A DNA stretch of 64,000 bases from Amoebophrya sp. A120 (taxonomy: Eukaryota > Protista > Dinoflagellata). Every line of letters begins with the position of its first letter. Position 1 is the stretch's first letter. Position numbers and translations under genes: made by a program. Shown piece after piece: positions 23,381 through 58,031 of this stretch. Under the pieces are notes generated by a model that was given only the letters and a program-made list of their open reading frames with translations, did no database searches and was not told where the DNA came from. The stretch covers positions 956,968 through 1,020,967 of the forward strand of contig CAJINV010000003.1 in assembly GCA_905178155.1 (NCBI GenBank). Direction: 5' to 3'.

Positions 23381-26300
23381 TCATATTGCATGGTACGCAG
23401 TTCCTCCAACTTCAACCCGAGGTGCCCGCACACTCACAAACACGAGAGTGCATATGGCGCCAAACGCGGCGCCCAGAAAGGCCGGGAAAAAAACGCCGTG
23501 CTGGTCGACAAAGGTGGTCCTCGTACTAGTGTGCTCCGCCGAAGCCGCCAAATTGCTGACAGCAGCGGAGGTAATGTGCGTGGTCTCTTTACTATTTTCA
23601 GCTAAGGCATGCTCATGCAGAGGATCTGCACCGGGACCGGCACTAGCTCTCGCAGCTGCTCCACCGGGAGAAAATGATGATCTTCGTGCAGCGACATCCG
23701 ACCGAGATGAGTCTTTCTCTTCCCACATCTTCACAAACTCCTCGTAGGTCGCCGGGTTGAAGGCCGCGGGCAGGACGTACTTGGGATTTGGCACGTCGTT
23801 CGCCCCCGTCATTTCCAAGTAGGCGCTTGGGTAGCCGAGGAAGCTGCCGAGCCCCGTTGCCTCGGTGTTGATGAATCCGCATCCTGTGGAAAAACGTCCA
23901 GCCCAGCACCCACCCAGAGTTGCCATGCACAATCAATGCAGCGAAAAACCTGTCATGCTTGATTCCCACAACCTCTGGATTTGTCTTGCAAAGTTCCCAT
24001 CTTGTTGACAGACTATGTGGTCATGGTGCGGACATTTTTACTCAGGATAACCCGTCGTTGTACTTTACCATCAGCTCGTCCGCAAGGTTATGCATTGCAA
24101 AACCATTGCGCAACAACTAGTAGTCATTGCATTACATGACTACTTACTACTCTACAAATTTGATCGCTTAGCATTACAAATGAAATTTGTTATGCTGCTG
24201 TATTACCTTAGCCAGGAGATTTGTCGTGCATAGATGCAATCACCACGAGTGCGATTCTTTTGCGCAGAGCATAGAGGTCCCACCAGTCCGCTACGACCTT
24301 GTCGTGCAGCTCAGCCTGCGCCGCATCGATCGTGAGCGCTTCGTTCTTGCTGACTTGTGGATGCGTGCGTATAAACGTGTCGATCTTCTGTTCCCAAGAC
24401 CGCACGCGAGGCATAACCTCAAAGTTCATTCACATTCATTTTGCTTTGTAAACATTAAGTATGCCTCTGCTGGTGCGGCGCCAGAGGAGTACAGGTAAGA
24501 GATATTAATGCCTGATGAAATCAATGCTCAGTAGCCTCATCTATGCAAGAAGCCAGCATCGGCTCCTCGTCATTGTACTTCATTTCAATTCAAAAGGAAC
24601 GCACTAAACTATGCGCACAAATTTTCTTCTTTATACATCTTCGTTCTCCATGTGCTCGTAGTTCCATTCCATTAGATTCGCAACGAGATTGAAGGCCCAC
24701 CACGCACTCTTGCGGTCCACCTTCCACCTCGTCCCCCGTTGGAGTGAGGCACCGAGCGCCGCGGAAACCTTCACAGAAGTCGACGTGGGTGCTTGTTTTT
24801 CGTCCTCGTCGTTCAATGTTTTAATTTTCATCTCCGTTGTTCGGCGCAGGTCTTTCTCTTCCGGGACGAACAGGGGCAGGTACACACTGGAGGCGGGGGT
24901 ATCCGGCGCGAACCACCCGCGAGTGGTTTTTGTCAAATCATGTTTGATGTTCTTGCCGGCCTCCTTAAGTTCTGGCTCGGCTGCTGCAAACGAAGACCCA
25001 ATCCACGCGTAGGTGGTCCTGGGTATGGAGATCGCGCGCGCGAATTGCACGTGCATCGCGACCGCGGCGTGCCCCCGCTCCAACCGGTTCGGGCTCTGGA
25101 AGGGCCCCGCGACAACGCCCTTGCGCAGGTCCAGTGGCGTGCCTTCGTAGTGGTCGCGGTGGAGATCCTTCACGGCCTGCTCTGTCAGCTATGAGGGTGC
25201 ACAACGCCCTTTCCCCCTCATTTGTATGGCATGAACAGCAATACAGACACCAGCACACGTGGAGTGTATGCATGACAAATTTATGTACCTAATGAATGTA
25301 GTAGTGTTTGGGCTTCCGTAATTTGTCATGCAAAGCATGCCACAAGGCACCTACACTAGACTACTGGATTTTGGGTTTTGCATGACAAGTGAGGGAGAGG
25401 GAGAGTTGTGTACTCTCATATCAGCTTTCTCGACACCGGGACCGAGAACGGCAGGCGGGTGTTGTCGGTGGGGGGCAGGTTATCAAATGCAAATATGGCT
25501 GGGTCTGGAAGATTTGGGTGTTTGTCATGCAAATTGTACATGACCCACGATGCTTGTGATGCATTCTCTAGCATCACAGCCCTCGCGAAGGCTTTCTCAT
25601 GCCTATCCTGCATGAGAAATGCCCGATCCGGGTGGCACAAATCTGAGCACCTTTTGCTGGTCATGCAATAGAGTTTTTTGTATGATCGAGAGTTAGCATC
25701 ACAAATCCTATTCTTCCAGACCCAGACATACTTGCACTTGATACAGGTCGTGCAGCTGCAGCTCGCGCATCAACCCCGGGTTTACCAGGTTGTACAGCCG
25801 CCAGATGCGCCCGGTGATGTACAAAGGGATGGGCGGGAGTTCCGGAATGTAGTGGAACGACCGCACGTCCTCGCCGAACGTGCTGGTAAAGTCGAAGGGC
25901 GCCGGGGCGTTTTCGTCCTCCTGCAGCGGCGTCCACAGCCTGTTCTCCATCGCCACCTGTTTGATGTTCGCGCTGCACAAAATGTTGTCCTGCTTGGAGG
26001 AGCTGGTCTGTGCAGAACCCGAGGACGACGGGAAAACACACGTCTGGATGTCGCGGATGATGAAATTGTTCGCCACGGTAGCACATCAAAAAAAAAAACA
26101 TTTTTGTGTCTCGGAGGAGAACTCGGTCTGGAAGCAAGAACCGCCATCATGCAGCACGACATGAGTCCTATAGGAACCAGATCATTCAACATCATCAAAA
26201 CACTTTCTGGTCGTGTACTACTACTACTCAGCCGAAGATTACGTTCACGACGTCGACACTAAGTCTAACGCCGCAGACCAAGAATTTCGATTGTTCTTTG

Positions 26301-27803
26301 CGAATCCATTGAATACAGATAGCAGGTGGACGCCATAGAATCCAAATGCATCTTCATGTTCATGCGCACATGCAGAAGTAGGCTCACTAGAAATGAGATG
26401 ATGTTGCAGATGAACAACTCGCGGTCCTACTGCGAGCCGAGCTCCCGGAAAAATGGGGCACGATTCCACCAGAGAATGTCGAGTATGGCGTTCTCAAATG
26501 TTCGTTACATTCTCAGCTGTTACATGATTTGCAATGCAAAAGCACAATCAAAATCGACACGATCAAGCTGCTTCGCATGACAAATTCTCGAAGGGCCCAA
26601 CAGGCTGAGAATCTGTGCCAGATCTGTCATGCAAGACGCGCAAGGTCACCCCTTTCACTTTTGCCATTCTTGCAGCACAAATTCATGTAACAGTTGAGAA
26701 TGTAACAGTTGAGAGCGCCATATCGAGACACACAGATTTGTAATGGACATACGGCGAAGTGGTCGTCTGGCACCCTCTGCGCCGCCCAGACAGCCGATTT
26801 TTTTCCGTTCGACAGGACGTGGAAGATCCACGCTTCTTTGCCGTCAGCGATCTGCAAGGATTCGCCTGCGCCTGGTGGTCCCGGGTCTTCGCCATAAAAA
26901 CCGTGCTTCACCTGACGGTGGGAGAGGGAATTCATGTAGAAGTTCTGACTCGTCTAGTTGTAGACTAACAAGAAAGTGCTTGTTGCTCTTCGTTCCACAT
27001 CCTCATTTTGATTTTTCTCCCGAGGCCGAGCTTTCATCATGACCTAGTATTTATTGCAAATGCAATGCGTTTATGCATATAGTACGAGCGCGAATAGGTT
27101 GGGTTGACACAACTCAAACAACACAACCAGATTGATAAGTACACAAGTGTACTATAAATTGCATCTCTGCTGACTTTCTCCTTCTACTTCTAGTACTTAC
27201 CGCCAAGTCCCCCATGGTGTGGATTGCACACCGTGCTGTCGCACATCGCTCCATTGCGATTTGGGTGAGAATCTTGAGCCCGAACAGGGCCCCGCTCTCG
27301 TAATCCGTAAAGAGTTTCGCGCCGCAGGTGCTTTCGCCGAAGGCGAGCCCCTTTTCGTTCAGCAATCCGTACGCTCCATCGTAGTACCCAAACGTGGTCG
27401 CTTCTGGGTCGGCCTCGATGTACCCAAGGATTTTCGTGACCTTCGTGCTGTCCGCCCGGAGATCCGCCTGGTTGGGAAAGTACATCGGCGCGTCCGCGGG
27501 ATCGGACGTGACCATGCGCGGATAACTCATCAACTGTAGCGGCACAGGACGTTTTCCATCCTTGTACCGGCGGGGCGGCACCCACGTCACCCGCGTGTCA
27601 CAGGTGCTGCAATCCACCGTGTGTGACACCATCGTGTTTCCAAGTTCCGTCGCGTCTCTCCCGATCGCAACGGAGGTGCAGGCCTGGGTGAAAAGCGGAC
27701 CATTCTCACCCCGCAAGAACGCGAGGAAGAATGTGAGCAAGGCAGAAGCAGAACCAGAACGACCCCGTTTGTGGCTCTTGGTTGTACAACGACTGAGCGT
27801 CAT
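23381..27803 (-). CDS. Peptidase C69 (dipeptidase A/secernin-like Ntn hydrolase) with C-terminal TM; exons 27803-27201, 26911-26752, 26075-25744, 25475-25421, 25184-24637, 24417-24274, 24083-24050, 23874-23381 (789 aa)
   Basis: A|CTSVAIGRDAT..MVSHTVD, NEKGLAFGESTC, IAMERCATARCAI, WAAQRVPDDH, RDHYEGT, RAISIPRT, SAWWAFNLVAN; exon sum 2370 nt is divisible by 3; two GT-AG introns plus five TIR/TSD introns. Confidence 0.9.
23880..24049. mobile_element. Introner family D (170 bp) in the C69 gene
   Basis: TIR catcctgtggaaaaacgtcc / tatcctgagtaaaaatgtcc; TSD atccg/acccg; removal gives KYNDG|FINT. Confidence 0.8.
24089..24273. mobile_element. Introner family C, diverged (185 bp), in the C69 gene
   Basis: TAT...ATA ends; TSD aaggt/gaggt; removal gives WWDL|ADELMVKY. 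Confidence 0.8.
25190..25420. mobile_element. Introner family E (231 bp) in the C69 gene
   Basis: TIR tatgagggtgcacaacgccctttccccctca / tatgagagtacacaactctccctctccctca; TSD tcagc; removal gives SRKL|TEQAVKDLHRDHY. Confidence 0.9.
25481..25743. mobile_element. Introner family B (263 bp) in the C69 gene
   Basis: TIR tatcaa(a/g)tgcaa..tg.ctgggtctggaaga; TSD caggt; removal gives HDL|PPTDNTRLPFSV. Confidence 0.9.
26079..26751. mobile_element. Older degenerate introner containing a nested element (C69 gene)
   Basis: TA ends, weak TIR sharing tgtgtctcg, residual duplication cgg; removing 26076-26751 gives DDHFA|VANNFIIR. Confidence 0.6.
26484..26722. mobile_element. Introner family A (239 bp), nested inside another intron
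   Basis: TIR tatggcg(t/c)tctcaa..gttacattctca.ctgttacatg; perfect TSD tcgag (26479-83, 26723-27). Confidence 0.9.
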
Positions 27804-28404
27804 GATGTTAGTTTTAGTTCGTGGCTCAAATATTAAGTAAAAGTTCCGAATAAAAGTTTCGCGACATAATTTCTTCGTGGGAGCAAGCACCCCCGGCGCC
27901 TCGGTGGACGATTGATGACGATGAAAACAGAGATACGACCCTTTGCTTTTGGTCTACTCTATTTGTAGTCTAGTTGTATTAAGCCCGTACGAATAAATGC
28001 GGGCGTGTTGTGAAGTTCAGTAGAAACAAAGGACATTCTGCTCGTTGTTTCAGACATCGACATCGTTTGGGATGAAGATCCTCTGCTACTTTTGTTTTGC
28101 ACCATCATGTGACCGAGTAGTTGTAGCGCCTGTCTTCAGGAGCAGGCTTTGGAAAGAGATCAGTCTGGCGAGGCACGCACGAGGAAGGGCAACACATCTA
28201 AACTTTAACTTTTAAACACAAAAAAGAACGAAAGACTGGACTCCGTGGGATTTTGGAGAAATTTGAATATCAAGTGGCGACATTTCTTCACGAGGGGCGG
28301 GAGTCGTATATATCCTAGTACATGAATGACGGTCATGCTCGAGGACCAACGGGATACATCGATTACTGTCTAGAATTGCGAGTATCTGAACCTCGTCACA
28401 TGGG

Positions 28405-31400
28405 TTACTGTTCAATAAACAGTCGTATCCGACTGAGCACGTTCTTGTTCACCGAGCGTGGCTTCTTGGCCGGGTCAAATTTCCCTTTTGTCCGCTGTTT
28501 TTCCAACATTTTTTCTTTCAAAACTTTGATCCATTCTGCGTCGGTTTTGTGCGGGAAGCGCCTTATCAGGTCGCGCCACGAGCGGAATTCTAGTACCAGC
28601 TGCTCCACCGCCTCCTCCCCGCACTGGTCGATGTGGCGCAACATTCGCCCAAAAATCTGCCGCGTCTGCAGGTCCGCGGTCTTCTTCGCAGTTCGCGCGA
28701 ACTCTTCGTAGGTGTAGTACCCGCCGCCCTCGGTGCCGGTTATTTTATGATGATCTTTTTCTTTGTTCGGAGACGAACTAGGTACCGCAGTACCAACTAC
28801 GTGGCGAGCCTCGACGGGATTAATTGCTACGGCAGATGAAGATCCTGTTTGCTGCTCACGGGGGTCCTGGAGTTTTTGTACGCTTGTCGTCAGGCTCTCA
28901 AGTAGGGCGTGGGTGTGCTCCGGATTTTGCGTCCGACAAACCCGGATTCCGGAAATAAACTGCGTGTGCACCAGGGCCGCGCAGATGGTCGAATGCGGCA
29001 AGCCACGGTCGAAACCGAACTTTTTCGCGCCGCCGGCCTTCATCTCCCAAAAGCACCTTTTGCTGCATTCGACGAGGTAAAAGAGGCGAACGAGGTCCTG
29101 CGGCATTTTCAGAAACCGCCGCTTCTGTTCGTTGTACCGCCCGTCGCGGATACTGGAATCCAAATCCGGAACGGACTTGCGCTCCAGCAGAAAGCCCGCG
29201 AGCAACTCGTTGCTTTCGCTCGCGCCGCCGCCGCGGGGGCTTCCCGTCGCTTTATTGCTCATCTCGTCGTCTCGCCAGATCCAGCACATGTCTCCCAGCG
29301 GCAAAGCGCGCATCTCCGACGTGTCGCTCAGAGATGTGCTCTTGAAAGCGCGCTGCTCGCGGGTGTCCGAAAGCAGCACTAGAGTCTGGTGCGAGTTCGC
29401 TGGCTTCCGGCACCCGCGAAAGTAGAAGCGCGTTGTCCCCTATCGCAACAAAAAAGTGTTACAGTTACACATTGTGTTGCAGGCCAAGCAAGACAGACAA
29501 GCTCTGTCATGCCGGATATGCATAGGAGCCTCGTTTCAGAGGTGTTTTGCCGTAGGATTTCTGCATTACAAGTTTTCTCTCTCATGCAGAGAAATTTGTG
29601 TTGTTGAACTCACTACAAATGTGTAAACTGTATACACTTTTTTCGTGGGATATCCCAGCGGCAGCGGCTCCTGCTGAGGCGATGGACTCCTGCAACGATA
29701 GATGTGCTGGGGAAAAATTGCGGCTAGTTGTAGTTCCCGAGGGAGGTGGTGGAGCCGAGATGTAGCTCTTGTCGACCTTGGCACCAAAAGCAAATCCGCT
29801 GCTGCCCGCAAACTGCGACGTGGTAGTAGAGCTAGAGGCAGCTGCTGTTCTTGCAACTCCAAGAACTCCTGTGGTCACACTCGTCTCCGATGCTATAATA
29901 AGATTTTTGCCTCCAAAGGTAGAACCGGAGGCCGTCGCGGAGGAAAAGAAGGCCGATGAAAAAGTCGCGGAAAACCCTATGACGCGCTCAGGTGTTACAA
30001 TCTCAAGCGCTTCAATAGAAGAGTCTGGATGTTGTATTGCATGACCACGAGCATGACAGACTCGCACAGCACGCGTCATCCACCTTCTGCAATACAAATA
30101 TCGCCAGATTCTAGTAGGGTTTTGGATTCCAGCACAACTTGTCATGCGCAATCCTGTGGGAGTACGTAGGATAGATCATGCATTTCGTTCTTGAATCACA
30201 GAAGATTGCCAGTATTCTCTTGTAACGTTTGAGATTGTAACCGTTTGAGCAGGTCGTAAACCCAGCCTGCTTCGCGGTAGGTGCCGCTGGTGCGGTGGCG
30301 GCGGTCGTACTCGAAAAGCCGGAAATCTGCATCTTCGAACCGGCTGCAACAGCTACTGCGCCAGTTGTGTCATTCATAGGTTGCAACGTCAGCGCGTTCT
30401 GATTGGAAGATGCGGATGCGGTACCTGGTGGTGGTGGTCGCGAGGCCCGTAGACGGGCAATCAATTCCGTCGTGGACGTGGACTATGCATTGCAAATATG
30501 TGTTCTGGGTCTGGAAACTTGTGATGCAAGGAAGGGAATGGTGAGCACACTGTAATGCTACTCCCGCGCTGCCAAGCATGACAAGTTTTTCCGTGGTGGT
30601 GGTTCTGAGTTGCGTATCCCACATGGGAAACTAATTTCATTTTTGCATGACACCAGGCGAGAGGAGCTCATTCCGGCCTCGCAATACAGAGCTCACAGTT
30701 AACATCACATGCCAGACAAGCAGAAGCATGACAGACCTTGTACATCTACCTCCAGACCCAGACATATTTGTAGTTGATATGGACGTTAGAGGAAGCTGAG
30801 CAGCGGGTGATTGAAGCATGGGCGTACCATCAGGGCTCGTGGTCACGTGTGCTCCTGCTGCTTTATCACGATCGGCGGACTGAAAACTAGAAAATGACGC
30901 AGGGTCAGCTGCGTGGTCCTCTGTGTACATACGCCGCTCCAACTGTTGTGCCACCTGTGGCTTTGGAACGAACAGTTCCGCTCCTGGGAGTTGTGGATGA
31001 GAGGTCGGATTCGTAGTTTGATATCCTCCTATTAATGTTCCACTTCCGTGCTGCCGATGCTGTTGTTGCTGAACTGCACTGGAAGTTGTTGGCGCCCCAC
31101 TGGTACTAGGTATCGCTCGCTGGTGCCCAAAACTTGATGTCTGGGGCGGAAAGCCGTGTGGTGCAAAGTTGTAGCTCGTCTGCGGAAAGCCCTGTGGTCC
31201 GCGGTCATTCGACTGGTGCTGTCCGAAGCCCGGCCCAAAGTTGTTCCCACTATGCATCTGCCCGTTGTTCATGAACCCGTTGTTGAGTGCCGGCGACGCG
31301 TTAATATTGTGTTGCTGTTGCTGTTCATCTTGATGCACGAAGCCGAATACAGCACGACCGGTGTTCTTTGGGCCACCAGGCTCGTCTAGTTGCACCTGTG

Positions 31401-33700
31401 GTCCAGACGACGACGTCGGAGGTTGTGGCTGGTGCTGCTCCAGAACGGGGGAAGTGAGAATCATCTGCTCGTCTCCGCTTGCTCCGGGCGCGGCTGGAGA
31501 GAAGTTGTGAAAGTTGTTATTTACCTGCCCGAATGAAGATCCCGCCGCTGCGGAGAAAGCACCACCAGTGCTGCCCACTGGCTGCACGGCCGGAGAGAAT
31601 TGCGACTTTTGTCCAAATGCAGGACCACCACCAAAAAACGCGGGAATGCCACTTCTAGAGGCTGCTGGTCCTGCGAAACCTCCGGTGAAAGACGACGCGA
31701 AGCCAGATGAGGAGGAACTACTAGATGCTACAGTATTCTTGAATCCAATTGCAAACTGCGAGTTCGATGTACTATTTCTTGCAGTCGTGTCGAACGACTG
31801 AACATTGCCCGTTGTGTTGTAGTTGAACTGCGAGAACTGTGAGGACGCAGAACGCTGCGGCTGCAAATCGGTATGATCAACGACATGGTTGGCATTATTC
31901 GCATGATTCGCACTTTTGAATTTGCTCACGCTCGTTCCTGTTCCTGACGCGGCCGCAGAGTTCGTCAGACCCGCACCAGAAGGCTCGAACGAGGTCCCCG
32001 AAGGGGCCGCTCCCCCGCGTAAAGGGCCTTTTACTACGACCGGAGCCAGAAGCCGTTCGACCAAGCTAGCAGTGCTTCCAGAAGCAGGTGCGGCTGGTGG
32101 GGCTCCTGCGGTCGGTCCATCATTTCCGTTTCTTTCAACTCGCATTCGCTTCAACGGCGGTGGTTCCGCCGCATAAAACTGCGAGGAGGATGACGGGGCA
32201 GCAAGAGCTACACTCGACGTTGAGCTCCCGGATGTTGAACGGAAATTATAGTGCGGGTCAGTTTGTTGTACCAGTTGGGATGAAATGCCAATGCGCCGCT
32301 CCTCTTCTTCCGCGAGTGATAGCTTGATGGCCCTTTGAAGGTCCTCTTCCTCACGTGCGGCAGCTGCAGCAAGGCCCACCACGTAGTTCTGATTTCTGTC
32401 ATCGAGTTGAGGTGGAACAAGTGGAACTACACCGACACCGTCTTCTTGCTGGACCACATTTTTAAGGCCGTCGTCGTGGTCTACTGCTTTATCAACAAAT
32501 AACTATCAAATGCAAAAGTGTCTGGGTCTGGAAGAATGGATGTTTGATGTCATGCTTGTCTGGCGTGACTCTTGAATCTGTCATGCACGTTACCCAAGCG
32601 CTCCACTTTTCTGTCATGCAGGAACGCAGTTTGTCATGCAGAATAGGCAACACCTAGAAGCGCAGAAACTTGTCATGCTGGGCCAGCACTTGCGGCCTCA
32701 TCATGGTACGCCACCCAGCATCACAAGTTTTCAGACCCAGACATTTTTGCATTTGATAATAACGGCGGTGCGACGAGGAAACCTCCACCATCGTCGGAAG
32801 ACGAGGAGGTATCTCCGGCCTCATCCTCTTCCGAGTTAAAGTCTTCTATCAAATGTAAAAGTGTCTGGGTCTGCTGGAAACTTGTGATGCTGTGTGGCGT
32901 ATCATGAGGAGGCCACAATTGCTGGCTCAGCATGACAAGTTTCTGAGCTTCTAGGTGTTGCCTATTCTGCATGACAAACTACGTTTCTGCATGACAGAAA
33001 AGTGGGGCTCTTTGGTAATGTGCATGACAGATTTAAGAGTCATGCCAGACAAGCATGACAAACTAGCATTCTTCCAGACCCAGACATTTTTACATTTGAT
33101 ATCTTCGTCCTCCGTACCATTATCCTCCTCATTCTCCGAGGGCACGACCCCGGACACCTGACTGTCGGGACCAGGACGAAGAACCGCAGTAGATTTAATA
33201 TTTCGCTTCTTAGAAGAGCCCCCTGCTCCGGTCGTGTTCGGCTGAATTTCCCCGGATTCCACGCGTCGCTGGAGGTCCTGAACGTTCGCGCGACCCAGCA
33301 GCAGCTCGGGGTCGTTCTTGAGCGCCTTTGTGAGCCGCGCCTTCACTTTAGTTCGCCACTTTCGCAGCTGCTTGACGCTCTCCGCAGCACCATCGGAGGA
33401 AGTAGAAGTTGCGGCGGCACCATTGTTCATCTTGGCGGACGAGGCCGTCGCTTTATTTTTATCGTGCAGAACCCGCTCGAAGTCCGCAGAAAAGGTCTTG
33501 CCCACACCCGTCAGCCACTGGGCTTGCACGCTGGTATCCAAGGCGAGAGGGTAGGCTTTCAAGCTCTTCACCACACCCCGGACGTTTCTCTTGGCGTCGT
33601 AACTGACGGCCCCCTTTTCCTCAAAGTGCGCGAGGAAAGCCGCATTTGCGGGGTGCGTGCGAACATTCATCTGAGCGGCGTTTTTCTTTTTCGAGGACAT
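28405..33700 (-). CDS. MUS81: Structure-specific endonuclease MUS81; exons 33700-33102, 32841-32759, 32498-30780, 30478-30259, 29972-29653, 29435-28405 (1323 aa)
   Basis: N-terminal HhH (PANAAFL..KSLKAYPLAL..WLTGVG); ERCC4 domain VLLSDTRE, LPLGDMCW, LLERKSVPDLDSSIRDGRYNEQKRR, FYLVE; C-terminal QIFGRMLRHIDQCG; exon sum 3972 nt is divisible by 3 after removing five introners. Confidence 0.9.
29441..29652. mobile_element. Introner family F (212 bp) in MUS81
   Basis: TIR tatc..a..aaaaaagtgt..aca; TSD tcccc/tccca; homologous throughout to 56436-56656; removal joins into VLLSDTRE. Confidence 0.9.
29978..30258. mobile_element. Introner family A, diverged (281 bp), in MUS81
   Basis: TIR ta(t/c)gac..gctca...gttacaatctcaa; TSD aaccc; in-frame join AGF|SATF. 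Confidence 0.8.
30484..30779. mobile_element. Introner family B, diverged (296 bp), in MUS81
   Basis: TIR containing caaatatgt..ctgggtctgga; TSD tggac; in-frame join. Confidence 0.85.
32504..32758. mobile_element. Introner family B (255 bp) in MUS81
   Basis: TIR tatcaaatgcaaaa.tgtctgggtctg; TSD ataac; in-frame join PPL|FVDKAV. Confidence 0.92.
32847..33101. mobile_element. Introner family B (255 bp) in MUS81, opposite orientation to 32504-32758
   Basis: TIR tatcaaatgtaaaa.tgtctgggtctg; TSD tcttc; join EDED|FNSEED. Confidence 0.92.
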
Positions 33701-34360
33701 CGTGGTGCCAATAAAGTTCTTCGGCGTACTGTGCTGGACGAAATTCTACATTTTCTGAAATATTCTGTTCATCATCTCAGTCGGAACATACTTGTGAGGA
33801 CGCAAAATAATGGAAATAGGAATACTTACTTTGCGAAAAGGGGTTTGCGATTGAATTGTTCTTTTTGTCCCATCAAATATTACTTGAGCGTTGAGGTTTT
33901 GAAAAGCGATATATCTGCACGCACTTCTTCCTAACGTTGATCGTGGTGTCTGCCTGTGTCAGATACGTTAACGACCTTGCTTTCAATCACGACGACAAGC
34001 GTGAGGATCTTCGCGTCCGCTTTGCGGCCTTTTTGCGGAGACATGACGGATCAAGGGAAGAATTCCATGTCGCACTTTATTTTCAACACAAAGAGAGAAG
34101 CGAACAAAATTCTCATCGTCAACTACGCTCAAATAAGCCAGCACACGATACCCATTAGCCTTCAGGGTGCGCTTGCCCCTGCGTGCCGCGGCTTGCACGC
34201 TTTACTAGTATGTAGATTTTTATCATCAGTTGGGAGGTAGAGGCTCTGGTTCTTTACCTCCAGATAAAAAGCGGTTGTTTAAAACGGCAGTGCTTCGAAA
34301 GATCCTTGCTCGTCAACAAGCACAAGCTATCGACCTTTTGCTTGCGTTCTTTCGAACTAT

Positions 34361-35032
34361 TGATTCACATTTCGTTTCCGGTCGTTCCAATCATACACAC
34401 AGAATAATGGTCTGCGATTTCAGTAGCGTTTTCAAAATCGGCCTTGTGCAGTTGGAACGGAAGATCACGACAATCATGATTCTCCGGTTCACAAACTTTC
34501 ATGAGCGGCCTCAAAGTATTAGAAACACCAGTGATTTTCTCATTTTCTCGGAGCTGCCCTCGAAAGAGTAAACAATAAAGATAAACTTGCTTCAAGTGCT
34601 TGTGCACGTAGACGTAATTAAAGATATTAAATGCGCCGGGATTATCTTCTGTGTTTTTTACGTCTACCTCTACTGGTACTGTTGTGTTTGCATGATTCGC
34701 ATTTCGTTTCCGGTCGTTCCAATCATACACACAAAATAATGGTCTGCGACGAGTTCAGTAGCATTTTCAAAATCGGCCTCGTGCAGTTGGAACGGAAGAT
34801 CACGACAATCATGATTCTCCGGTTCACAAACTTTCATAAGCGGCCTCAAAGTGTTAGAAACACCAGTGATGTTCTCATTTTCTCGGAGCTGCCCTTGAAA
34901 GAGTCAACAATAAAGATAAACTTGCTTCAAGTGCTTGTGCACGTAAAAATTATTTACTTAAAGATAAATGCGTCGGGATCATTAACTTCTGTGTTTTTCA
35001 CGTCTACCTCTACTGGTACTGTTGCGTTTGCA
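34361..35032. repeat. Diverged tandem duplication (~332 and ~340 bp units)
   Basis: tgattc(a/g)catttcgtttccggtcgttccaatcatacac... starts at 34361 and 34693; both units end gttg(t/c)gtttgca. Confidence 0.9.
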
Positions 35033-38000
35033 AAAGTGGTCCCGGCTGATCGTGCCGCCGCGGCCGCGCGTCCGTGCCACTTTGCGGCCGCGTATCATGA
35101 GAGTGCACAACTCCCCCTCCCCCTCATTTGTGATGCAAAATGTCTAATTTACACCTTGCCTCTGGGCACTGTTAGCATGACAAGTTCTCGCAGCCCAAAT
35201 AGCACTACACTCCTGTCCAACTTTGTCATGCAAAACCTGTATTCTTGCTGACGCTTGTATTGCCGTTCATGCAACACAAATGAGGGGGAGGGGGAGTTGT
35301 GCACTCTGATACCGCGCTCGATCAGACGCGAACCGTTTGGCTCGATCAGACGCGAAGCGTTTCTCTCTGCTCCCTGCTCTTCGTGTCCTCTCAGTGGACT
35401 GGGTGTTGATGGTCTCCTGCTCCTCTCCGGCTCCTCCAGCAACTAGTACATCAGTACCCACCAGCACATCTGGATCCAGACCACCCTCCACCTCCTCACC
35501 AGCTTCATCTGCGTGTATTTTTGGCGCGGCTGGCCGTTCTGTCTCCTGCAAATAATATCCTTCCCTCCTCAGCTCTGGGACCGCATGCTCGTAGAAAAAA
35601 GCTCCCCAGGATCGCACGCCTGTGGACTGTTGGAAGTTCGTTCTCCACCCAATCCTCCTCGATGGTCGTGTTTGCCTTTGCTCAAGTACTCCTCCAGTTT
35701 GCGTCTCCAAGGCTCTGCCAGCGGTACTCCTCCGGTTTGCGTCTCCAGTCCAAGCAGCACTTACCACCGGCCCCAACGCGAGATGGACGCTATAGGCCCT
35801 CCGCAGCTTAGCGGCGACCTCAGGCGCATGATTTTTATGTGCTTCCTTTATTACTTCCAGGTACTTTTTCGCCTGTTCGACGACGAAGCTGAGTAGCTTT
35901 ATGTAATTCGGCTTGCCTTTCTGCCGTGTCACGGTTGAGAGCAAAACTCTTGAGGCGCGAAAAGTGCCAACGTCTTCATCAGGGTTTAGGCCCAGCCAAG
36001 CATCGTAACGCAGCAACGTCATGTCTTGGCTTCGCTCTCTGCCCTCTCTTCTTGGCTCAGCGAGCCCCGGACTCGGATGCGATAGCTGCCTCCTCGACGA
36101 CGACGCTCCAGGAGCACCAGCAGCCGGCGCAGCATCTTCAGGCCCTGGATCATCGCGCACTACCACTAACTCGAGTTCTCTATGTGTTGCTCTACTAGGT
36201 GCATCTTCCCTGTCTTTGTCTTCCTCCACATGATTCGCGGCAGGCCGCTCTTTGTAGTACGTGGTGTTGATGGTCTCCTGTCCGGTTGCGCCGTGCTCCT
36301 CCTGATCATCTCTTTCTCTGTGTCCGTTCGCAGCGTTCTTCTCAGTCGTCGATCTGGCTTCCTGCTCTCCAGCCGCGCCACCAGCCGACAGCACACGACC
36401 ACCGCCCTCAGTCTGCGCTGAGTCGCCAGTCGTTCTTGATGGGGGAGATCCCCATCGCCATCCCGACGTCGTTGAGAGGGTCGGCGTTTCGCTTCTTGAT
36501 GTCGCGCAGCTGGTAGCGACCAGCATCTTCTGATGATCTTGATCATGACATGCATCATCATCGACTCCCCCGCGCGCTCCTCGTCTTCTAGCTCTACGTG
36601 CACGACGACCCTCCTCCTCTTCCTCAACATGACTCTCAGCGGCCGACGCGTGCTCCTCACAGCTTGTAGAAGCTGCTTATCGTGCTTCTCCAACTAGTGC
36701 ATCAGCATCCACATCACCTGGATCCGGAGTGCCCTCCACCTCCTCATCTTCTGCGTGTTGCAAATCATATCCCTCTGCCGTCAGCCTTGGGAGTACATGG
36801 CCGTAGAAAAACTCTCCCCAGGATTGCACGCTTGGTATCGCCTGTCGGAAGGTCCGACTCCCGATCGACTTCGTGTTCGTCACTATTCCTTCTTGCTTTA
36901 CTGCCTTTTGCGATGCCATGGCGTTTCCCCAAGCTTTCCTTACCAGCGGTTTCATCGCGAAGTAGACGCTACGGGGCCTCCGCAGCTTAGCGGCCACCTC
37001 TGGCGCATGATTTTTATGTGCTTCCATTACCACTTCCAGGTACTTTTTCGCCTGTTCGACGACGAAGCTGAGTAGCTTTATGTAATTCGGCTTGCCTTTC
37101 TGCCGTGTCACGGTTGAGAGCAAAACTCTTGAGGCGCGAAAAGTGCCAACGTCTTCATCAGGGTTTAGGCCCAGCTCCGAGGCATCGTAACTTTTCAATT
37201 TTTTGTCTTGGTATTGCTCTCTGCCCGTTCTTCTTATTGGCTCAGCGAGCCCCGGACTCGGATGCGATAGCTGCCTCCTCGACGACGACGCTGCAGGAAC
37301 ACCAGCAGCCGGCGCAGCATCTTCATTTTTCCGCAGAGGAAAATATCCTTCCGCCGTCAGCGTTGGGACCACATGGTCGTAGAAAAATTCTGCCAAGAAT
37401 TGCACGCGTATCGACTGCTGGCAGTTCATTCTGGCAGCTCTAGTACAACGCCTCCTCGCGAAATGCGGGCCCCAAGCCTTGTTCACGAGACGTTTCACCA
37501 CGATGTAGACGACCAGGGGGCTCCGCAGCCCGACGGCGCCCTCGGCCGCAGGGTTTCTATGTGCTTTCATTCTCCACCAGTATTCTTTCGCATATTCGAC
37601 GGCGAAGCTGAGCAGCTCTTCGTAATTCGGGTAGATATAATTATCGGGCTGTTCTTCCCAGTCGGGCCGTGTCACGCTCATATCAAATGCAAAAGTGTCT
37701 GGGTCTGGAAACTTGTGATGCTGGGTGGCGTATCATGAGGAGGCCACAAGTGCTGGCTCAGCATGACAAGTTTNATGTAATTCGGCTTGCCTTTCTGCCG
37801 TGTCACGGTTGAGAGCAAAACTCTTGAGGCGCGAAAAGTGCCAACGTCTTCATCAGGGTTTAGGCCCAGCTCCGAGGCATCGTAACTTTTCAATTTTTTG
37901 TCTTGGTATTGCTCTCTGCCCGTTCTTCTTATTGGCTCAGCGAGCCCCGGACTCGGATGCGATAGCTGCCTCCTCGACGACGACGCTGCAGGAACACCAG

Positions 38001-45649: not shown

Positions 45650-48474
45650 TTACTGCACCGTAACAACTTCTTCCACCACTTCCCCCTCCTTCTCGACCTT
45701 CTCGATGAATGCCTCCAGTGTGGGGGTTTTTGCCTTTTCCGCAGACGAGGTCGCTTGTTCCGCACAACTGGCTTCTTCCTCCACCTTGCTCGCTTCAACA
45801 TCTTCATGCCCGGCCGCGGCGACGCCCGCCTCGGCCGCTTCGCCTTCGGGTCCTTCGCCCGCATCTTCGACTTGTTCCTTCTTCTCCTCTTCCTCTGCAG
45901 AAACGCTCGACGTGGTGGCAGGCACGGCACCCGCGGCGACCTCGGCCGCCCGCGCGGGCGGACTGAGGATGTCCGCCGCGGTTTCCTCCGGAATGACGGA
46001 TTGCTTGGAAGACATGACCGACCCGCCGAACAGGCTGGAGAACTTCTTGTAGGCGGCCACGTCCTTCAACGGCTTGCGCACGAAGGACGCCATCCGCTTA
46101 TGAATTACAAAAGTACTAACGTACTAGGATAAATTGCAATACAAGTTGGCTCAGCATTTTTTCAAATTTAATTTGTAATGCGGAGTTGCCTTAGGAGCTA
46201 GTATTTGTAATTATACAAGAGGTGAACACGCTCCACACGTAAAAGGTTAAGCTTGTCGCTTTTCGCTTCTTTGTCTTTCTATTCGCGCTGTAACGTTACA
46301 CTTGGGGCCTTAACGTTACACTTGGGGCCTAATGCATAAATGCAATTAGTACGAGTACGATACTTTTGCGCAGGATACCGCTTCGCCCGACGCGATTTCG
46401 GCGACAGCACCGGGGCCGCGTCCTCGTCCTCCTCGGCCGTGGTGGTCGCGGCCTCCAGAAACGCGGTGGACGCCGGCTTCGTCTTGTTCGAGGGCGGTCC
46501 CTCGCCCGAAGACGCTTCCTCCGCACTTGCCGACGCCGGCTTCTTATCCTGTGCAAAAGTATCGCACTCGTATTGCAATCATGCATATACAAATCTTTTT
46601 GTTTTTGTTAAGTCAAATACGCAGTACAAATTTTATTTCTCATGCTGAGGAAATTTGTAGTGCATTTATACGAGTACGAGACTGTTGCACAGGATACTTC
46701 TCGCTCGCCGCTTCGTCCGCACTGGAGCTGCTCGGTTGGCTTTCCACCGAACTCTTGGATCCCTTGTTGTTGGTGCCAGTCTCTTGCAGCTCCTTCGAAT
46801 CCTTGCTGGCCCGTTTCGAACCCTGGTATGGAATGGATTGCGGATTTTTGGTATAATTGGGAGTTCTTGATGAGGTTGAGGGAAACTAGCAGAGATAACA
46901 TCAAGTTTAGCTGTTTTTATGCTGCAGTAGAGCCGGAGATCGCTCACGCGCGACGCTGCTCCACGTTTTGAGCAAACGCGAACAGCAGCAGCGTTCACAC
47001 TCTATTGTTCTTTTGAAAAAGATATTGGAATACATCCAACCAGTTTGGACGTAAAAAAAAACAGAATCTTGATCTTCAACTTCACCTTGTTTGGATTTAG
47101 AAGCAACAGATATAAAAGAAATTCTTTTTGTACCGGCTTGGAGCCGTTCCCCGGCTGCGCGGTTTTGTTTTGCGCGGCGACAGCACCCTGGTTCGGGCGG
47201 GTCTGCTTCATCTGGCGGCGGGTCTGCTTCTGCTGGCTGTTCGCGTACTGCTGCAACTTTTGGTCCTCGGAGGATTTGGAGGAAGACGCAGCTGCCACGC
47301 CGGCCGCTGGAGTTGCTGCCCCCGGACCAGCGGTCGTGGCGTCCCGGCTCTCGCGGGTACCGCGGTACTTGAACCGCCAGGTGTTCCGCACCACTGGGCG
47401 CACGCCATTTCCATTGTTGGTGGTGGCCTTGGACAGGTCGTGGTGGCTGGAAGCCGCTGCAGGAGCTCCGGACTGGTCATAGAACGAACCGTGCTTCATC
47501 ATGCCGCGGTAGTGGTCGGACTTTTCTTTGCTGCCGTTACGCGAGGTTGACCCCGGCGGCCCATGATAGGAACTACTACCGTACCCGCCGTAACTGTAGC
47601 CGTAGTACGAGTCGTAGCCGCCCGCCGGCGCGCCGCCCCAGGCATGATGCGGTGGTCCCGCCGCGGGGGCTTTGCTCCCGGGGGGCGTGTATCCAGTGCT
47701 CGCGGTACCGCGCTGCGTCCACTGCTCACCGTGATACCAACTGGCCATCGGATCCATCCACGGGCCGTGGTTCGGATCCACGATCACCACCGGAGAGGTC
47801 GTCGGCTGCGGATGCACCATCACGGGCGCCGGGGGCGGAACGGGGACGCGGGACGAGTGTTTATGGCGTTCTCAGACGTTACATTCTCAACTATTACATG
47901 GATTTGTCATGCAAATTAGCCATGAATATCGACACGACCAAGCTGCTTCGCATGACAAGTTCGCGACTTGCTAGATAGCATGAGAATCTACGCCAATAAA
48001 CCTGTAATGCAAAAGGCGCAATCTTTTTTTTTTTTTTTCAATTTTGCCACTCTTGCATTGCAAATTCATGTAACAGTTGAGAATGTAACATTTGAGAATT
48101 CCATAGTTTTCCGCGGTTCCTTTGGAGCTGTGCGACGTGGTCGTGCCCGAGAAGGGGTGCGCCGGTTGGTGCACAGCCGCTCCTGCCTGCGGGTGCGGCG
48201 GCATCGGCGCGACAGCCAGGTACTGCGGACCACCCGCCGCGCCGGCGAAGAGGTGGTGCGCGGAGGTCCCGAACAGATTCGGGTCCAAGGCCAGATACTG
48301 ACTCTCATGGTACAACGGTTGATGGTGCGTCGCGGCAGCAGTCGTGTACACCAGCTGCGGGTGGTGCATCAGTACCTGGTGATGGTGGCTCGTCGGGCCC
48401 GCAACGCCCGGGGGCGGCATCAACACCTGCGGAGCCGCTGGTACCATCTGGTGCACCGCCGGCGGTGGCGGCAC
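45650..48474 (-). CDS. Hypothetical low-complexity (Pro/His/Gln-rich then acidic) protein, 5' end incomplete; exons ..48106, 47856-47134, 46885-46697, 46539-46378, 46093-45650
   Basis: In-frame joins after removing three introners and one GT-AG intron (46886-47133). Confidence 0.65.
46099..46377. mobile_element. Introner family C (279 bp, with an internal 20-bp tandem duplication at 46291-46330)
   Basis: Ends tatgaattacaaaagtac / tatcctgcgcaaaagtatcg; TSD ccgct; join AKR|MASFVRK. Confidence 0.88.
46545..46696. mobile_element. Introner family C (152 bp)
   Basis: TIR tatcctgtgcaa.agt.tcg.actcgtat; TSD cttct; closely similar to 56231-56387. Confidence 0.92.
47862..48105. mobile_element. Introner family A (244 bp)
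   Basis: TIR tatgg..ttctca.a.gttacattctcaact.ttacatg; TSD gtgtt/gtttt; join AEN|SSRVPVPP. Confidence 0.9.
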
Positions 48475-54209: not shown

Positions 54210-55267
54210 GATTTGACGTGTACTTGCGCGACAGTTTGAAGCTGTCTAGCGGACTACTCGCGAGGAGAAAGCAAGTTTTTATGTCCGAAGCGACAGCGAA
54301 GTAGTGTTCAAAAAACGGGGAAGAACTGTTCTAGTCAGTTAAAGATTACACGGAAATTCCAGATGGTGCCACAAGCCAACGAAGTGAATTTTACCAGGAG
54401 CAAGGAGGAAGCTTACATCCGCTTGCAACGCAGTCTACCAGTTGCAGTTCCGCCTCGTTCGACGAAATGCACGATAATCAAATATCGAGGCGGGACGAAG
54501 TGGCACGATGAAGATCCCTAGGCTTTTTGAGTCCAACTCCAACCCAAGAACGTGCTTCATCATAGTATTTGTCAGGGACAAAACTCACTTACCAGCCGGA
54601 TGCTGACGATTACGAATTGCTCTACGTGCGTGGAGATTTTCTTCCAGAGCAGACAGATCCATACGATTGCGATTAATACGAGGAAGACGGGAATTTCTAA
54701 ACGAGCAGTACGAGAGGGAGAGTCGGAGTCCTCATACGGTATAATAATTTTCGTTTCCACCAATGAACGAAGTTCACAAAGTCACGAGTGAAGGTCAGAG
54801 GGTTCTCAGCTGCCGGTCAGTTGTACGACTACATTTAACATTTGCAGTGCCTCGGACGAAGGGTAAGGATGCTGACGAACGAAATGACATCTACCGCAAA
54901 GGCCATTTTATTTGCAGGCTGTAATCGATAGAATGCAGGGGGGTCTGTTTCACGACAAACCCAATCAGGTTAGCGTTGGAGCGCTTCTATAATGTTTTAT
55001 TTCATGTTGAAAAACGCGCTATGGGCTTTAGATAGAAATGGCCGGCTGTTTCTGCCGGATAACGGCAAGATGAAAGGAGCTGCCACGTTTAGAGCCGTAG
55101 CCGTTTGGTCTTGGTGACCTCATTACATACAACTGATCGTTAGATCTGCCGCAGGTGGTTCGACAAAGTTTGTCGGAACTGACGGCGCTACTCCGACAAA
55201 ATCTGTCGGAAATCGAGGGAGCTTGATCCTAGCGCGAGGCGACAATCTTCAGTACCTGGACGCAGCG

Positions 55268-58031
55268 CTAGTACATCGAGTTGTATTTCAGTTTGTCCGG
55301 TTGGTATCCCGGCAGCGTCTGCACCGCCGCGGCAATGCTTTCCCGGCCGACAAATTTGCTGCAGACGAAGAACATCTCCCGCGACTCGTCGCGGCTCGCG
55401 GGCGGTTTGAAGGAGTGCACCGTTTTGAAGCGCGAGCGCAGGTACATTTTGAAGTTGGTGGTTTCCGGGCCGTACATCATTTTCACCACGAAGCTGCCGT
55501 CCAGCCGCTATCCTATGTAAAAACGTCCTCGCCCCATAGTCAAGATGGGGAATCGGCTAGACAAATCCACAAGTTTTGGCTGTCTTGCATGACAAATTGC
55601 GATTCGTAGTGTAGTGCTGTTTGAGCTAGCTCAGCAGCATCACAGATCTAGCGCCTCATGCGGATTGGAGCATGACAAATTGCAAAACACGAATAGCAAA
55701 CGCTTCTCATGGGGCTCCGCATGAGAAACATTTTCAGCATGCAGATTTGCATTGCAACTATGGGGTGGGGACGTTTTCAAATACGATAGCCGCAGCACGC
55801 GCTCCATCATTTCGCCCGCCGCGAGGCAGAGCTCCGCGGATATCCTAAGTAAAAACGTCCCCACCCCAGAGTTGTAATGCAAATGCGCAATGACAGGAAC
55901 ATTTGTAATGCGCATCCCCATGAGAGGCATTTCCAATCGTGATTTGGCATTTGTAATGCTGTAAACAGGATGAGAAACTGGCTTTCTTATGCGGCTCTCC
56001 TTGCTAAGCACCACTATACTACAGACGGAAACTTATCATGCACAACTCCCAAAGCTTGGCGATTTGTGTTGCAGATTTACCAACTTGACTATGGGGTGGG
56101 GACGTTTTTGCTCAGGATAGCGGAATCCAGGTGGTCGTCCTGCTTCACGCCGGTGAGGCTGGGACACATGTCGGACAGCACCACGTCCACCTTCTCGCCG
56201 TTGGTGGCCCGCAGGATCTTCTCCAGCGTGTATCCTGTGCAAAAGTATCGTACTCGTTTTGCAATCATGAATCACAAATCTTTTTCTGAGCCTGAAGGTA
56301 AATCAGCATCACAGATCTTCATCTTATTTCTCATGCTGAGGAAATTTGTAATGCATTTATACGAGTACGATACTTTTGCAATTCATAGCGTGTCCGCTTT
56401 CGTGACGTCGCCCTGGATAAAGACGTGCCCCTGGTTATGCACAGAAAAAAGTGTCACAGTTACACATTGCGTTGCAAGACCAGCAAGACAGACGACTTCT
56501 GTCATGCGCAAAATGTTTGCGAGTGTCGTTTCGTGTGTGTTTTGCTTTATGATCTCTCCATCACAAGTTTTCTCCGTCATGCGAGGCAAATTGAAATTTG
56601 TGATGCTGAATTCGCTACAAATGTGTAAAAATTGTATACACTTTTTTCCTTGGATACTGGTCGTCCAAGGGATCGATGTGCAGCAAGTCCTATCGTAAGG
56701 AAAAATCCCCCCTCCCCATATCGAAACGGAATGTTTCCGAAAATTTGTGTTGCTGATTTGAGCCTTAATTCCACCTGATATCCGTAGGCCTCGTTGGGGG
56801 TCCCTCACCCCCAACACGCCGAACTTCCTCCTTCCACACGCAGCGTCGGAGGGGTCGCACGTAGCCCTGGAGGTGATAACGAGGGTGTTGCTGATTTGAG
56901 GCCACAAATCGCATTTGTCTTGCAATAAGACAAGGGTAGAAGCTTCCGCCCCATTAGGGAGGCGATTTGTCATGCTGTTGGCCCTAAAAGTGGCCCGCTT
57001 GCCATGCTGAAGAACTAGACCCATACGCCCCTGCCTAGCCTGGGGATCTGGCCGCAGTGCCTCTCTGCAATACAAACCTGATTTGTGTACACACATCCAG
57101 CATCAGAAATTCCGTTTTGATATGGGGAGGGGGGATTTTTCCTTTCGATAAGTCCACGCCAATCACCTGGGCGTGCCTCCGCGCCTCTTCGTCGGCGTCG
57201 TCCGCCAGCACCGTGCGCTCCAGCGCCACCTGCGACCAGCCCCCCGCGTAGCAGCCCAGGTCCAGGATCTTCTGGCCCTTCCGGAAGATGCCAAACCGCG
57301 AGTCGATCTGCTTCAGCTTGTAGGCCGCGCGCGTGAGGTATGGGGTTCTCAAACGTTACACTCTCAACTGTTACATGATGAATTTGTCAAGCAAAAGCAC
57401 CATCATCATTCACGCGATCAGGCTGCTTCGCATGACAAATTTGCCTAGGGCTAAATAGCACCTAAATGTGTGCAGAATTTGTAATGCTACAGGCGCAATC
57501 TCCCCCCTTTCACTTTTCCCATTCTTGCATCACAAATCCATGTAAGAGTTGAGAATGTAACAGTTGAGAACGCCATATCCGGTAGCTCTCGTTTTGGGCA
57601 CGCTTCACGTACCGGTCCGCCATCTGTCGCTGGACCCACTGGTGCACGTTGGAGGAAATGGACGAATTCTTTGACCTTCCGCTCAATTTCCCAAACCCGC
57701 GGTGACTCTGGGCGACGTGGGGCGGAGGTCGTTCTTGTGGTTGCCGCGAGTGATCGACGATGAAGAGTGGCTGAAAACAGATCCGTCGTGGTGTAGTAGT
57801 CGGGCGGCAATTTGGTGACGTTGACAAGTGCCTGGGTGTTCTTGTAGATGTAGTGGTCGTGTGTCTCATCATGATGTTGTGGCGGGCACCGGAACATAAG
57901 GTGGCAACAGCTGGAGCCACGCCATTCGTGCATGGTAACGGTGTCGTCCCGAATGGGGTCGCTGTGCAGTAGAGCTGGGAAACACAGCTCGTGGCCGCCC
58001 TACTCGTCGATGTTCCTGCAGCATGTGTCAT
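55268..58031 (-). CDS. MRM2: rRNA large-subunit 2'-O-methyltransferase, RlmE/FtsJ family, MRM2-like; exons 58031-57578, 57333-57151, 56685-56657, 56430-56388, 56225-56120, 55835-55789, 55503-55268 (365 aa)
   Basis: Reconstructed QWVQRQMADRYVKRAQNESYRTRAAYKLKQID, ILDLGCYAGGWSQVA, IGVDLLHIDPL, FIQGDVT, VDVVLSDMCP, GSFVVKMMYG, KPPASRDESREMFFVC (K-D-K-E tetrad); exon sum 1098 nt; start codon tentative. Confidence 0.9.
55509..55788. mobile_element. Introner family D (280 bp) in MRM2
   Basis: TIR tatc.tat...aaaacgtcc.c.ccccatagt; TSD gccgc. Confidence 0.92.
55841..56119. mobile_element. Introner family D (279 bp) in MRM2
   Basis: TIR tatcct.ag.aaaaacgtccccacccca; TSD gcgga. Confidence 0.93.
56231..56387. 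mobile_element. Introner family C (157 bp) in MRM2
   Basis: TIR tat....tgcaaaagtatcgtactcgt; TSD gcgtg. Confidence 0.93.
56436..56656. mobile_element. Introner family F (221 bp) in MRM2
   Basis: TIR tat.ca..gaaaaaagtgt..aca..ttacacatt; TSD ctggt. Confidence 0.92.
56691..57150. mobile_element. Introner family G (460 bp) in MRM2
   Basis: ~41-bp TIR tatcg(t/a)aaggaaaaatcccccctccccatatc(g/a)aaacggaa; TSD agtcc. Confidence 0.93.
57339..57577. mobile_element. Introner family A (239 bp) in MRM2
   Basis: ~55-bp TIR tatgg(g/c)gttctcaa..gttaca.tctcaact.ttacatg; degenerate TSD tgagg/tccgg. Confidence 0.9.

Follow-up and report, generated by a model that had tools for sequence, protein, structure and literature searches.

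Precise removal of introner elements as non-GT-AG introns in Amoebophrya sp. A120, with a likely fixed splice register

A stretch of 64,000 nucleotides from the genome of the dinoflagellate Amoebophrya sp. A120 (GenBank assembly GCA_905178155.1, contig CAJINV010000003.1, positions 956,968 to 1,020,967 of the forward strand) contains genes interrupted by short repeated elements, most of which begin with TAT and end with ATA. The question raised by this locus, called the window below and numbered from its first base, is whether genes so interrupted still yield intact messages and, if they do, where the cuts fall and what makes them. We find that the elements act as precisely removed introns without GT-AG borders, and that their cuts probably keep a constant spacing: the 5′ cut precedes the insert by one base and the 3′ cut follows it by four. 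They belong to a published family, the introners described by Farhat et al. 2021 (PMC7789003), which the public annotation already removes; the first-pass annotation of the window, made from the letters of the sequence, had suggested a link to Amoebophrya introners, and the elements proved to be those introners themselves. Published work is cited here from parts of each paper.

Repeated elements and their precise removal from transcripts

Scans for terminal inverted repeats (TIRs), in which gapped and imperfect repeats were allowed, delimited 23 distinct elements of 152–668 bp between positions 23880 and 57577; with one truncated duplicate the total is 24, the number first estimated. Two decayed elements were delimited with the help of RNA joints. 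Both ends read TAT...ATA in 19 of the 23 elements, in keeping with the earlier statement that nearly all do, and a single end base is altered in the other four (CAT at 23880 and 26084, GTA at 30258, TTA at 38928). Seventeen elements are flanked by an exact 5-bp target site duplication (TSD); the two copies match at four of five bases in four elements and at three of five in one, and the duplication of one further element has decayed. All nine 5-bp duplications quoted in the first-pass annotation were found at the kind of site it described. Pairwise BLAST among the elements gave six related groups plus singletons, which agrees with its figure of at least seven families.

A TIR complementary at 14 or more of 20 positions together with an exact 5-bp repeat was found 17 times, 14 of them with a TAT start, compared with 0–3 times, whatever the start, in each of 10 shuffled sequences. 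The same scan gave 0–1 matches at repeat lengths of 6–9 bp. Without the TIR demand, TAT...ATA plus an exact 5-bp repeat was a weak criterion (31 matches against 7–16 in 10 shuffles). Ungapped TIRs, 70% complementary, extend over 13–73 bp in 19 of the 22 elements folded and are gapped or decayed in three. The elements have no coding capacity, and no Pfam match to a mobile-element protein was found in the ORFs searched. Scans of the first 23 kb of the window gave no TAT...ATA element. A lone TIR half at 50741 and a possible decayed element at 53047–53355, both seen by eye, stand outside the count, and a long, GC-rich inverted repeat lacking TAT ends lies at the window start (80–310).

Fifteen sequencing runs were considered. 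Four of these (X3, X5, X6 and X7) derive from one sample, S2, taken by guess to be RNA, and were used as contigs, not reads. Their contigs skip two canonical GT-AG introns in the window (24418..24636 and 26912..27200, both on the minus strand), which served as internal controls, and therefore behave as spliced transcripts. Of 15 joints between 21000 and 39500 in these runs, 11 are non-canonical, two are the canonical introns and two are cross-copy artefacts; a twelfth non-GT-AG junction, 47855>48105, was present in an X3 contig. Together the 12 junctions account for the loss of 13 of the 23 elements from the transcripts, and the length skipped equals the element plus 5 bp at 11 of them and the element plus 2 at 35093. 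Skipping in the transcript contigs upholds the earlier view of the elements as precisely removable introns. As had also been claimed, no register within the TSD yields sense-strand GT...AG borders (0 of 21 elements tested); antisense-only GT...AG occurs in two. In this pair, at 24089 and 25481, AGGT inside the TSD creates a false antisense GT...AG intron, a trap for unstranded annotation. A raw RNA-read run with the same species label (X13) placed only one read on the window, and a metagenome (X11) contained element fragments only, which give no evidence on habitat.

The conserved genes named in the first-pass annotation were recovered, all on the minus strand. ERCC4 (28408–29439, the MUS81-like gene) and FtsJ (57038–57355, the MRM2-like gene) score above the Pfam cut-off, and Peptidase_C69 (24634–25188), at 21.9 bits, falls slightly below its cut-off of 23. 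The C69-peptidase-like gene (transcript span 23076..28039) encodes 790 aa from Met after removal of its seven introns, all of which are spanned by one error-free contig of 2.8–3.0 kb in each of the four runs. Besides the two canonical introns these are the introners at 23880..24049 (sense 3′ end ATG; joint 23873>24049 in 4/4 runs) and 24089..24273 (arms out of register; joint 24084>24275), each with a register-informative TSD matching at 4/5 bases, at 25190..25420 (TSD TCAGC; related to the element at 35093) and at 25481..25743 (TSD CAGGT), and a decayed 668-bp introner at 26084..26751 that has lost its TSD. The last is removed as an intron with GT..CT ends at 26080–26752 (joint 26079>26753, no shared bases). 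It is an old element hosting a younger one, a nested 239-bp introner (26484..26722, TSD TCGAG), and the outer intron now begins with GTATGT, a yeast-type 5′ site.

The MUS81-like gene (28408..33745, approximate) encodes 1323 aa from Met once five introners are removed, at 29441..29652 (TSD 4/5), 29978..30258 (sense 5′ end TAC; TSD AACCC), 30484..30779 (TSD TGGAC), 32504..32758 (TSD ATAAC) and 32847..33101 (TSD TCTTC). The last two belong to one family, lie in opposite orientations and are both spliced. The longest open reading frames (ORFs) before in-silico splicing are 279 aa for the C69 gene and 621 aa for the MUS81-like gene. Six introners interrupt the gene for an MRM2/RlmE-like methyltransferase (55191..57620, approximate; 229 aa from Met): 55509..55788 (TSD GCCGC), 55841..56119 (TSD GCGGA; orientation opposite to 55509), 56231..56387 (TSD GCGTG), 56436..56656 (TSD CTGGT), the 460-bp element at 56691..57150 (TSD AGTCC; crossed by ORFs without Pfam match) and 57339..57577 (TSD 3/5; the mRNA keeps the upstream copy). 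When all six are removed, the product matches the annotated protein P0001, named Amoebophrya sp. A120 by its source, with 100% identity over 229 aa. The MRM2 exon sum equals the offset in an X3 contig (637/638), individual MRM2 joints being absent from the joints listed. Another protein, P0003, was rejected as the MRM2 orthologue, having no BLAST match to the spliced MRM2 protein.

Among the remaining elements, that at 35093..35311 (minus strand, three extra bases at one end) is skipped in two of the four runs at low depth (joint 35090>35312), and that at 47862..48105, in a hypothetical gene on the minus strand (TSD 4/5), is skipped by the X3 contig mentioned above. No RNA joint among those listed covers the elements at 38376..38634 (TSD GCTCA) and 38718..38928 (one TTA end; TSD TCTCC), or those at 46099..46377 (TSD CCGCT) and 46545..46696 (TSD CTTCT), both in one hypothetical gene on the minus strand. 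The earlier rule of an element plus one TSD copy holds at 11 of the 12 junctions and fails at 35093.

DNA-like run X1, from sample S1, covered unique DNA at an even depth of 22–69, and its error-free contigs pass from the flanks into the elements. Bins containing elements reach 18,000–110,000 against 22–69 elsewhere, this being a summed X1 depth and not a copy number; the elements are present in the DNA and highly repeated. The same run bears on the possibility that a domesticated transposase takes the elements out of the DNA during the transcribing stage, like the internal eliminated sequences of ciliates. TA-type ends, TIRs and a TSD would suit a transposase substrate, and the DNA-like S1 and RNA-like S2 samples differ and may represent different life stages. 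Against excision, X1 contigs anchored in unique flanks continue into the elements without mismatches, no clean single-element skip occurs among the 15 of 477 X1 joints listed, and the RNA-like runs hold element sequence joined to other flanks as well. Two further points against it follow from the position of the cuts.

Position of the cuts within the duplication

A perfect direct repeat hides the position of a cut, and an imperfect repeat reveals it. All cuts fitting each joint were listed. The junction at 23880 allows at most one base before the repeat to be included in the intron, and that at 24089 needs at least one. The intron at 26080–26752, with no shared base, starts one base before TAT and ends four bases after ATG. 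The junction at 47862 allows values from -1 to 2 and that at 35093 allows 0 or 1; seven of the 12 junctions are compatible with 5–7 registers. The only register common to all 12 is (1,4), giving an intron of the form N-TAT...AT[A/G]-NNNN. An X3 contig with a clean start at 57578 and the sequence of P0001 both agree with it.

The spliceosome might instead cut at varying positions within the direct repeat, as depicted by Farhat et al., the agreement among junctions being due to chance. The legend to their Fig. 3 describes the splice sites as variable and the border position as unknown, and Fig. S23 places the repeats 1–5 nt from the sites (PMC7789003). In the window, too, the seven junctions open to 5–7 registers leave room for variation, and the codon-fit test described below gave a fixed register no support. 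On the other side, the published spread is what an aligner would produce inside a perfect direct repeat, and the five junctions with an informative TSD mismatch or offset (at most five registers each) all include (1,4), three of them together leaving no other shared value. We consider a variable register improbable.

The element at 35093 is a natural ruler experiment. A 3-base insertion near its sense 3′ end is accompanied by a shift of the cut by three bases and leaves one extra codon in the mRNA (the transcript strand of 35090–35312 being taken from a minus-strand ORF). Its minimum-energy fold pairs the terminal UAU and AUA across a 3-nt bulge, and the cut lies 3 nt inside the predicted base of the helix. 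The cut ignores that base and therefore appears to be positioned by a feature deeper within the arm, and by neither the TSD nor the helix base.

The bases at the cuts were counted in related sequences, obtained in one metagenome scan as 146 overlapping loci (L001–L146; 622 kb) of one whole-genome shotgun project. Copies there are up to 97% identical to elements of the window; the loci contain no orthologue of the window genes. Among 464 TAT...ATA elements with TIRs, picked without a TSD demand, the flanking exact repeat was 5 bp in 313, 2 bp in 41, 3 bp in eight, 4 bp in two and 6 bp in one. When both flanks were framed independently, removal of the element plus 5 kept the frame in 84 of 88 cases. 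A codon model assigned a strand to 245 of 366 elements. In these the +1 base is free (G 73, A 71, C 57, T 44), all 16 dinucleotides occur at the 3′ end and GT..AG borders occur in six; these counts led us to reject selection for G+1 or for a 3′-terminal AG.

The first T of the element, which becomes U at intron position +2, behaves differently. In elements with relaxed ends (256 of 420 oriented) it is unchanged at 256 of 256 sense 5′ ends, compared with six changes at the mirror 3′ position, whereas position 3 has five changes at the sense 5′ end and three at the mirror 3′ end. In the window the first T has no change at sense 5′ ends and three at the mirror position; the five degenerate ends there are three 3′ ATG (the shifted end at 35096 included), one 5′ TAC and one 5′ TAA.

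At (1,4) the cuts would split the duplicated 5 bp so that four bases come from the upstream copy and one from the downstream copy, restoring the exact exon. The sequence kept combines both TSD copies in a way that depends on the direction of the transcript, and the U asymmetry tracks the coding strand whichever strand of the contig carries the gene (123 and 122 elements). Both points argue against excision from DNA, which we regard as very improbable; the first-pass annotation had allowed for it. Removal at the RNA level is observed in its outcome, and the machinery is what we infer below.

Machinery of removal and of spread

On balance the best explanation is that an integrase-type enzyme spreads the elements and that a relaxed spliceosome removes them from pre-mRNA at the fixed register. 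In A120, U2, U4, U5 and U6 are present, and U1 small nuclear RNA (snRNA) and snRNP27 were not detected (PMC7789003). In yeasts, loss of SNRNP27K accompanies a preference for U at +4 (PMC10581693). The (1,4) register, combined with these two reports, tips us moderately towards a relaxed spliceosome over hairpin-guided cutting, a variable register or DNA excision. A U1-70K homologue has been noted in strain A25 (PMC12787238), and U1 may therefore be undetected rather than lost. The TAT end would supply U at +2, A at +3 and U at +4 of the intron, readable by U6 without U1. The 3′ cut would be made at a fixed distance from a landmark in the 3′ arm (UUU-N7-AUA-N4) and not by AG. The hairpin probably helps to bring the ends together and would not be strictly needed.

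Removal might alternatively be independent of the spliceosome and guided at the RNA level by the terminal hairpin, as proposed for the nonconventional introns of euglenids. An enzyme would read the stem with its 1-nt 5′ and 4-nt 3′ overhangs, cut, ligate and possibly release a circle. Stable folding is predicted (shuffle tests gave z from -2.2 to -14.4 in 20 of 22 elements, compared with -2.0 and +0.8 in two canonical introns), G+1 and AG are both dispensable, either orientation works, and the 35093 cut still falls at (1,4) if the uninterrupted helix is taken as reference. In Euglena a fixed-spacer code, 5′-N3CDG...CH′G N5-6|R, has been described (PMC12501133), as have circular excised introns (PMC11282704). 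Against this route, the cut at 35093 lies inside the base of the minimum-energy fold, and in-register pairing of the ends has a probability near zero in two RNA-verified introns (24089 and 26084). The TIRs have no sense-strand excess of G.U over A.C that would indicate selection on the RNA stem (186 against 180; young copies, limited power), and the invariant U sits exactly where the spliceosome requires it. A strict hairpin requirement is not supported, which tells against the structure-guided route first proposed, if it is taken strictly, and we judge hairpin-guided removal as a whole unlikely.

A bolder form of the relaxed-spliceosome reading is held tentatively: a U1-less, AG-blind spliceosome may read the code N|U-A-U...UUU-N7-AUA-N4, needing only the U at +2 and placing the 3′ cut by a ruler, in tens of thousands of A120 introns. 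If so, every insertion with a 5-bp stagger, whatever its orientation and the sequence it enters, would be a perfect intron at birth, and the DNA-binding motif of a transposase would double as a splice signal.

The elements themselves have the anatomy of non-autonomous DNA transposons: a TSD of constant 5-bp length, TIRs, both orientations, nesting, a subterminal motif and no coding capacity. TIRs, constant TSD length and absence of coding capacity are also the features of miniature inverted-repeat transposable elements (MITEs). The repeat motif TAT+7+AAA occurs in most families of the window and is absent from the family of 25190 and 35093; in the related loci, a sample enriched for the searched family, A occupies positions 11, 12 and 13 in 215, 222 and 237 of 248 5′ arms. 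A second motif, TGTNWTGC/GCAWNACA, occurs in all families and in both orientations, with 84 sites in 5.9 kb of elements compared with 21 in the 57 kb outside them. In the related loci its density is 14.5 against 1.5 per kb, and it is commonest 35–50 nt from each end; enrichment inside elements is about tenfold or more. It is likely a subterminal repeat bound by the transposase, and it resembles a branch site too. As a branch point it was set aside, since it is symmetric and hence indistinguishable from a transposase site. The sections of Farhat et al. 2021 used here (PMC7789003) make no mention of it.

The TA ends, together with the 5-bp stagger, suggest a DDE enzyme from the integrase clan. 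Such an enzyme, Ginger- or IS3EU-like within the IS3/integrase clan and encoded elsewhere, would bind TAT-N7-AAA and the subterminal TGTNWTGC and insert the element with a 5-bp stagger in either orientation. Ginger2 elements have TGT..ACA termini; the window elements, with TAT..ATA, differ from Ginger2/TDD in this respect and agree with them in a TSD of 4–5 bp. IS3EU/GingerRoot elements have TA..TA termini and usually 6-bp TSDs, Ginger2 elements have TSDs of 4–5 bp, and their enzymes are integrase-like DDE proteins (PMC10045372).

Neither the window nor the overlapping related loci (622 kb) yielded an autonomous partner bearing these ends, and viral contigs gave no instance of the TIR pattern. 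A search of the related loci for long elements of the form TA[TC]...[AG]TA flanked by an exact 5-bp repeat gave nine candidates, of which those above 1 kb were several short elements spanned together. The longest single element (L051:5997–6968, 972 bp) belongs to the commonest family, contains no internal ORF above 86 aa and interrupts an RPB1-like gene (Pfam), the flanks of which rejoin in frame. It is possibly a relic of a longer element, left by internal deletion. An ORF for a C-5 cytosine DNA methylase was also seen in the related genome (L014:587–2086).

A number of points weigh against spread by an integrase-type enzyme and spliceosomal removal at one register. For the register, two junctions (23880 and 24089) are independent of any choice of ends, one is unambiguous and three are consistent with it; the stem ends of 26084 and 35096 were set after the junction was seen. 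The evidence comes from one RNA sample, from contigs and from minus-strand genes, and one rule was assumed for all elements. In the codon-fit test on mismatched TSDs, positions 1–4 were flat (11 of 20), and position 5 favoured the upstream copy in 10 of 13 cases (p 0.09), the wrong direction. The asymmetry at +2 U amounts to 0 against 6 events on strands assigned by a codon model. Changes at -7 (three, against five at the mirror site) gave no support to a branch A there. The elements lack both splice-end bases whose pairing is normal in the second step of splicing. On the side of spread, no transposase or integrase Pfam match was found in the 57 ORFs of the window, as the first-pass annotation had noted, or in those of the related loci, where the search covered the 144 longest of the 209 ORFs that passed a codon filter (239 ORFs of 190 aa or more before it). 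The elements share TA..TA termini with IS3EU/GingerRoot and depart from their 6-bp TSD with one of 5 bp. Farhat et al. found no A120 transposase and argued against general mobilisation by transposases (PMC7789003). For the idea of a branch A at -7, the fixed branch-to-AG distances known in other protists (PMC2483917) offer an analogy only.

Further features of the window lie apart from this argument. The truncated duplicate of the 38376 element (37681..37773) lies at a single-N gap and is likely an assembly artefact, as is the 701-bp tandem duplication that contains it (37077–38471, 99.3%), around the single N at 37774. A 343-bp tandem duplication (91%) occupies 34361–35032, and the ORFs across 35270–40027, long and on the minus strand, carry 90% internal repeats without any Pfam match. 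A 2-kb low-GC island (14001–16000; 0.32 against about 0.52) has no long ORF listed. Other genes with Pfam matches, at 529–8527, 21243–22784 and 61171–63159, are SNF2/RING/helicase (plus strand), amidohydrolase, GAF domain and TMEM65 genes. An Rfam search of the window gave no match.

Comparison with known introns and transposons

The published A120 introners are of the same kind as the elements of the window. Farhat et al. 2021 reported more than 60% non-canonical introns and, in A120, 29,850 repeated introns in 1,954 families, with inverted repeats of TAT + 7 + at least three A, direct repeats of 3–5 nt and a length of about 240 nt, and compared them with MITEs; the legend to their Fig. S19 gives 5-bp repeats (PMC7789003). 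Two reviews repeat this description (PMC11282704, PMC11453091). In the window we likewise found non-GT-AG introns with RNA support, TIRs (gapped or decayed in 3 of 22), direct repeats within the 3–5 nt range, TAT+7+AAA, many families and no transposase, and the MRM2 product is an A120 protein. What differs from the published text, as far as the sections used here go, is that the border resolves to (1,4), that the TSD is a constant 5 bp, that the +2 U is invariant and that an internal motif is shared.

The increment made here, a fixed register and an invariant U at +2, is small and testable and comes from few junctions. A literature search found no paper fixing the Amoebophrya register; subscription papers and figures were outside its scope, and such a result may be in print. 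Without borders no splicing signal can be read, and a fixed (1,4) would put a short, testable code in place of 'no clear splicing signature'. It would explain how the 5-bp duplication is repaired without a scar in either orientation, and would correct annotations that place a false GT-AG inside the duplicated bases, as in the two antisense cases here. If a spliceosome works without G+1 and a 3′ AG, this bears on how intron ends are recognised and on how introns can be gained in mass without harm.

Among transposons, Gozashti et al. 2025 assign most A120 families to TIR DNA elements of unknown superfamily, with mixed splice-site calls (PMC12130899). Their fam38 is an 808-bp TIR element with Copia/Gypsy-integrase-like ORFs, a Ginger label, a 5-bp TSD and TA/TA termini; automated TSD calls for other A120 families are 2–6 bp or none (PMC12130899). 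The window elements share with fam38 the organism, TIRs, 5-bp TSD and TA ends, and differ in having no integrase-like ORF. They share the TA..TA termini of IS3EU/GingerRoot and the 4–5 bp TSD of Ginger2, families for which we found no enzyme here.

Euglenid introns are likewise non-GT-AG, with TIRs, TSD-like repeats, fixed spacers and a probable MITE origin (PMC12501133, PMC11282704). They differ in their signature, N3-CDG...CH′G-N5-6|R, where the window elements have N-TAT...AT[A/G]-N4, and in their circles, in having no +2 U rule and in belonging to an unrelated lineage. Fritillaria borealis also has MITE-derived introns with TIRs and a TSD, removed by a modified U2 spliceosome (PMC11282704, PMC13326754); that species keeps AG-AC and AG-AT ends and U1, whereas here the ends are free except for +2 U and U1 snRNA was not detected. 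Compared with a canonical U2 intron, finally, GT...AG is lacking (present in 0 of 21 elements in the window and in 6 of 245 in the related loci), and only the U at +2 is kept.

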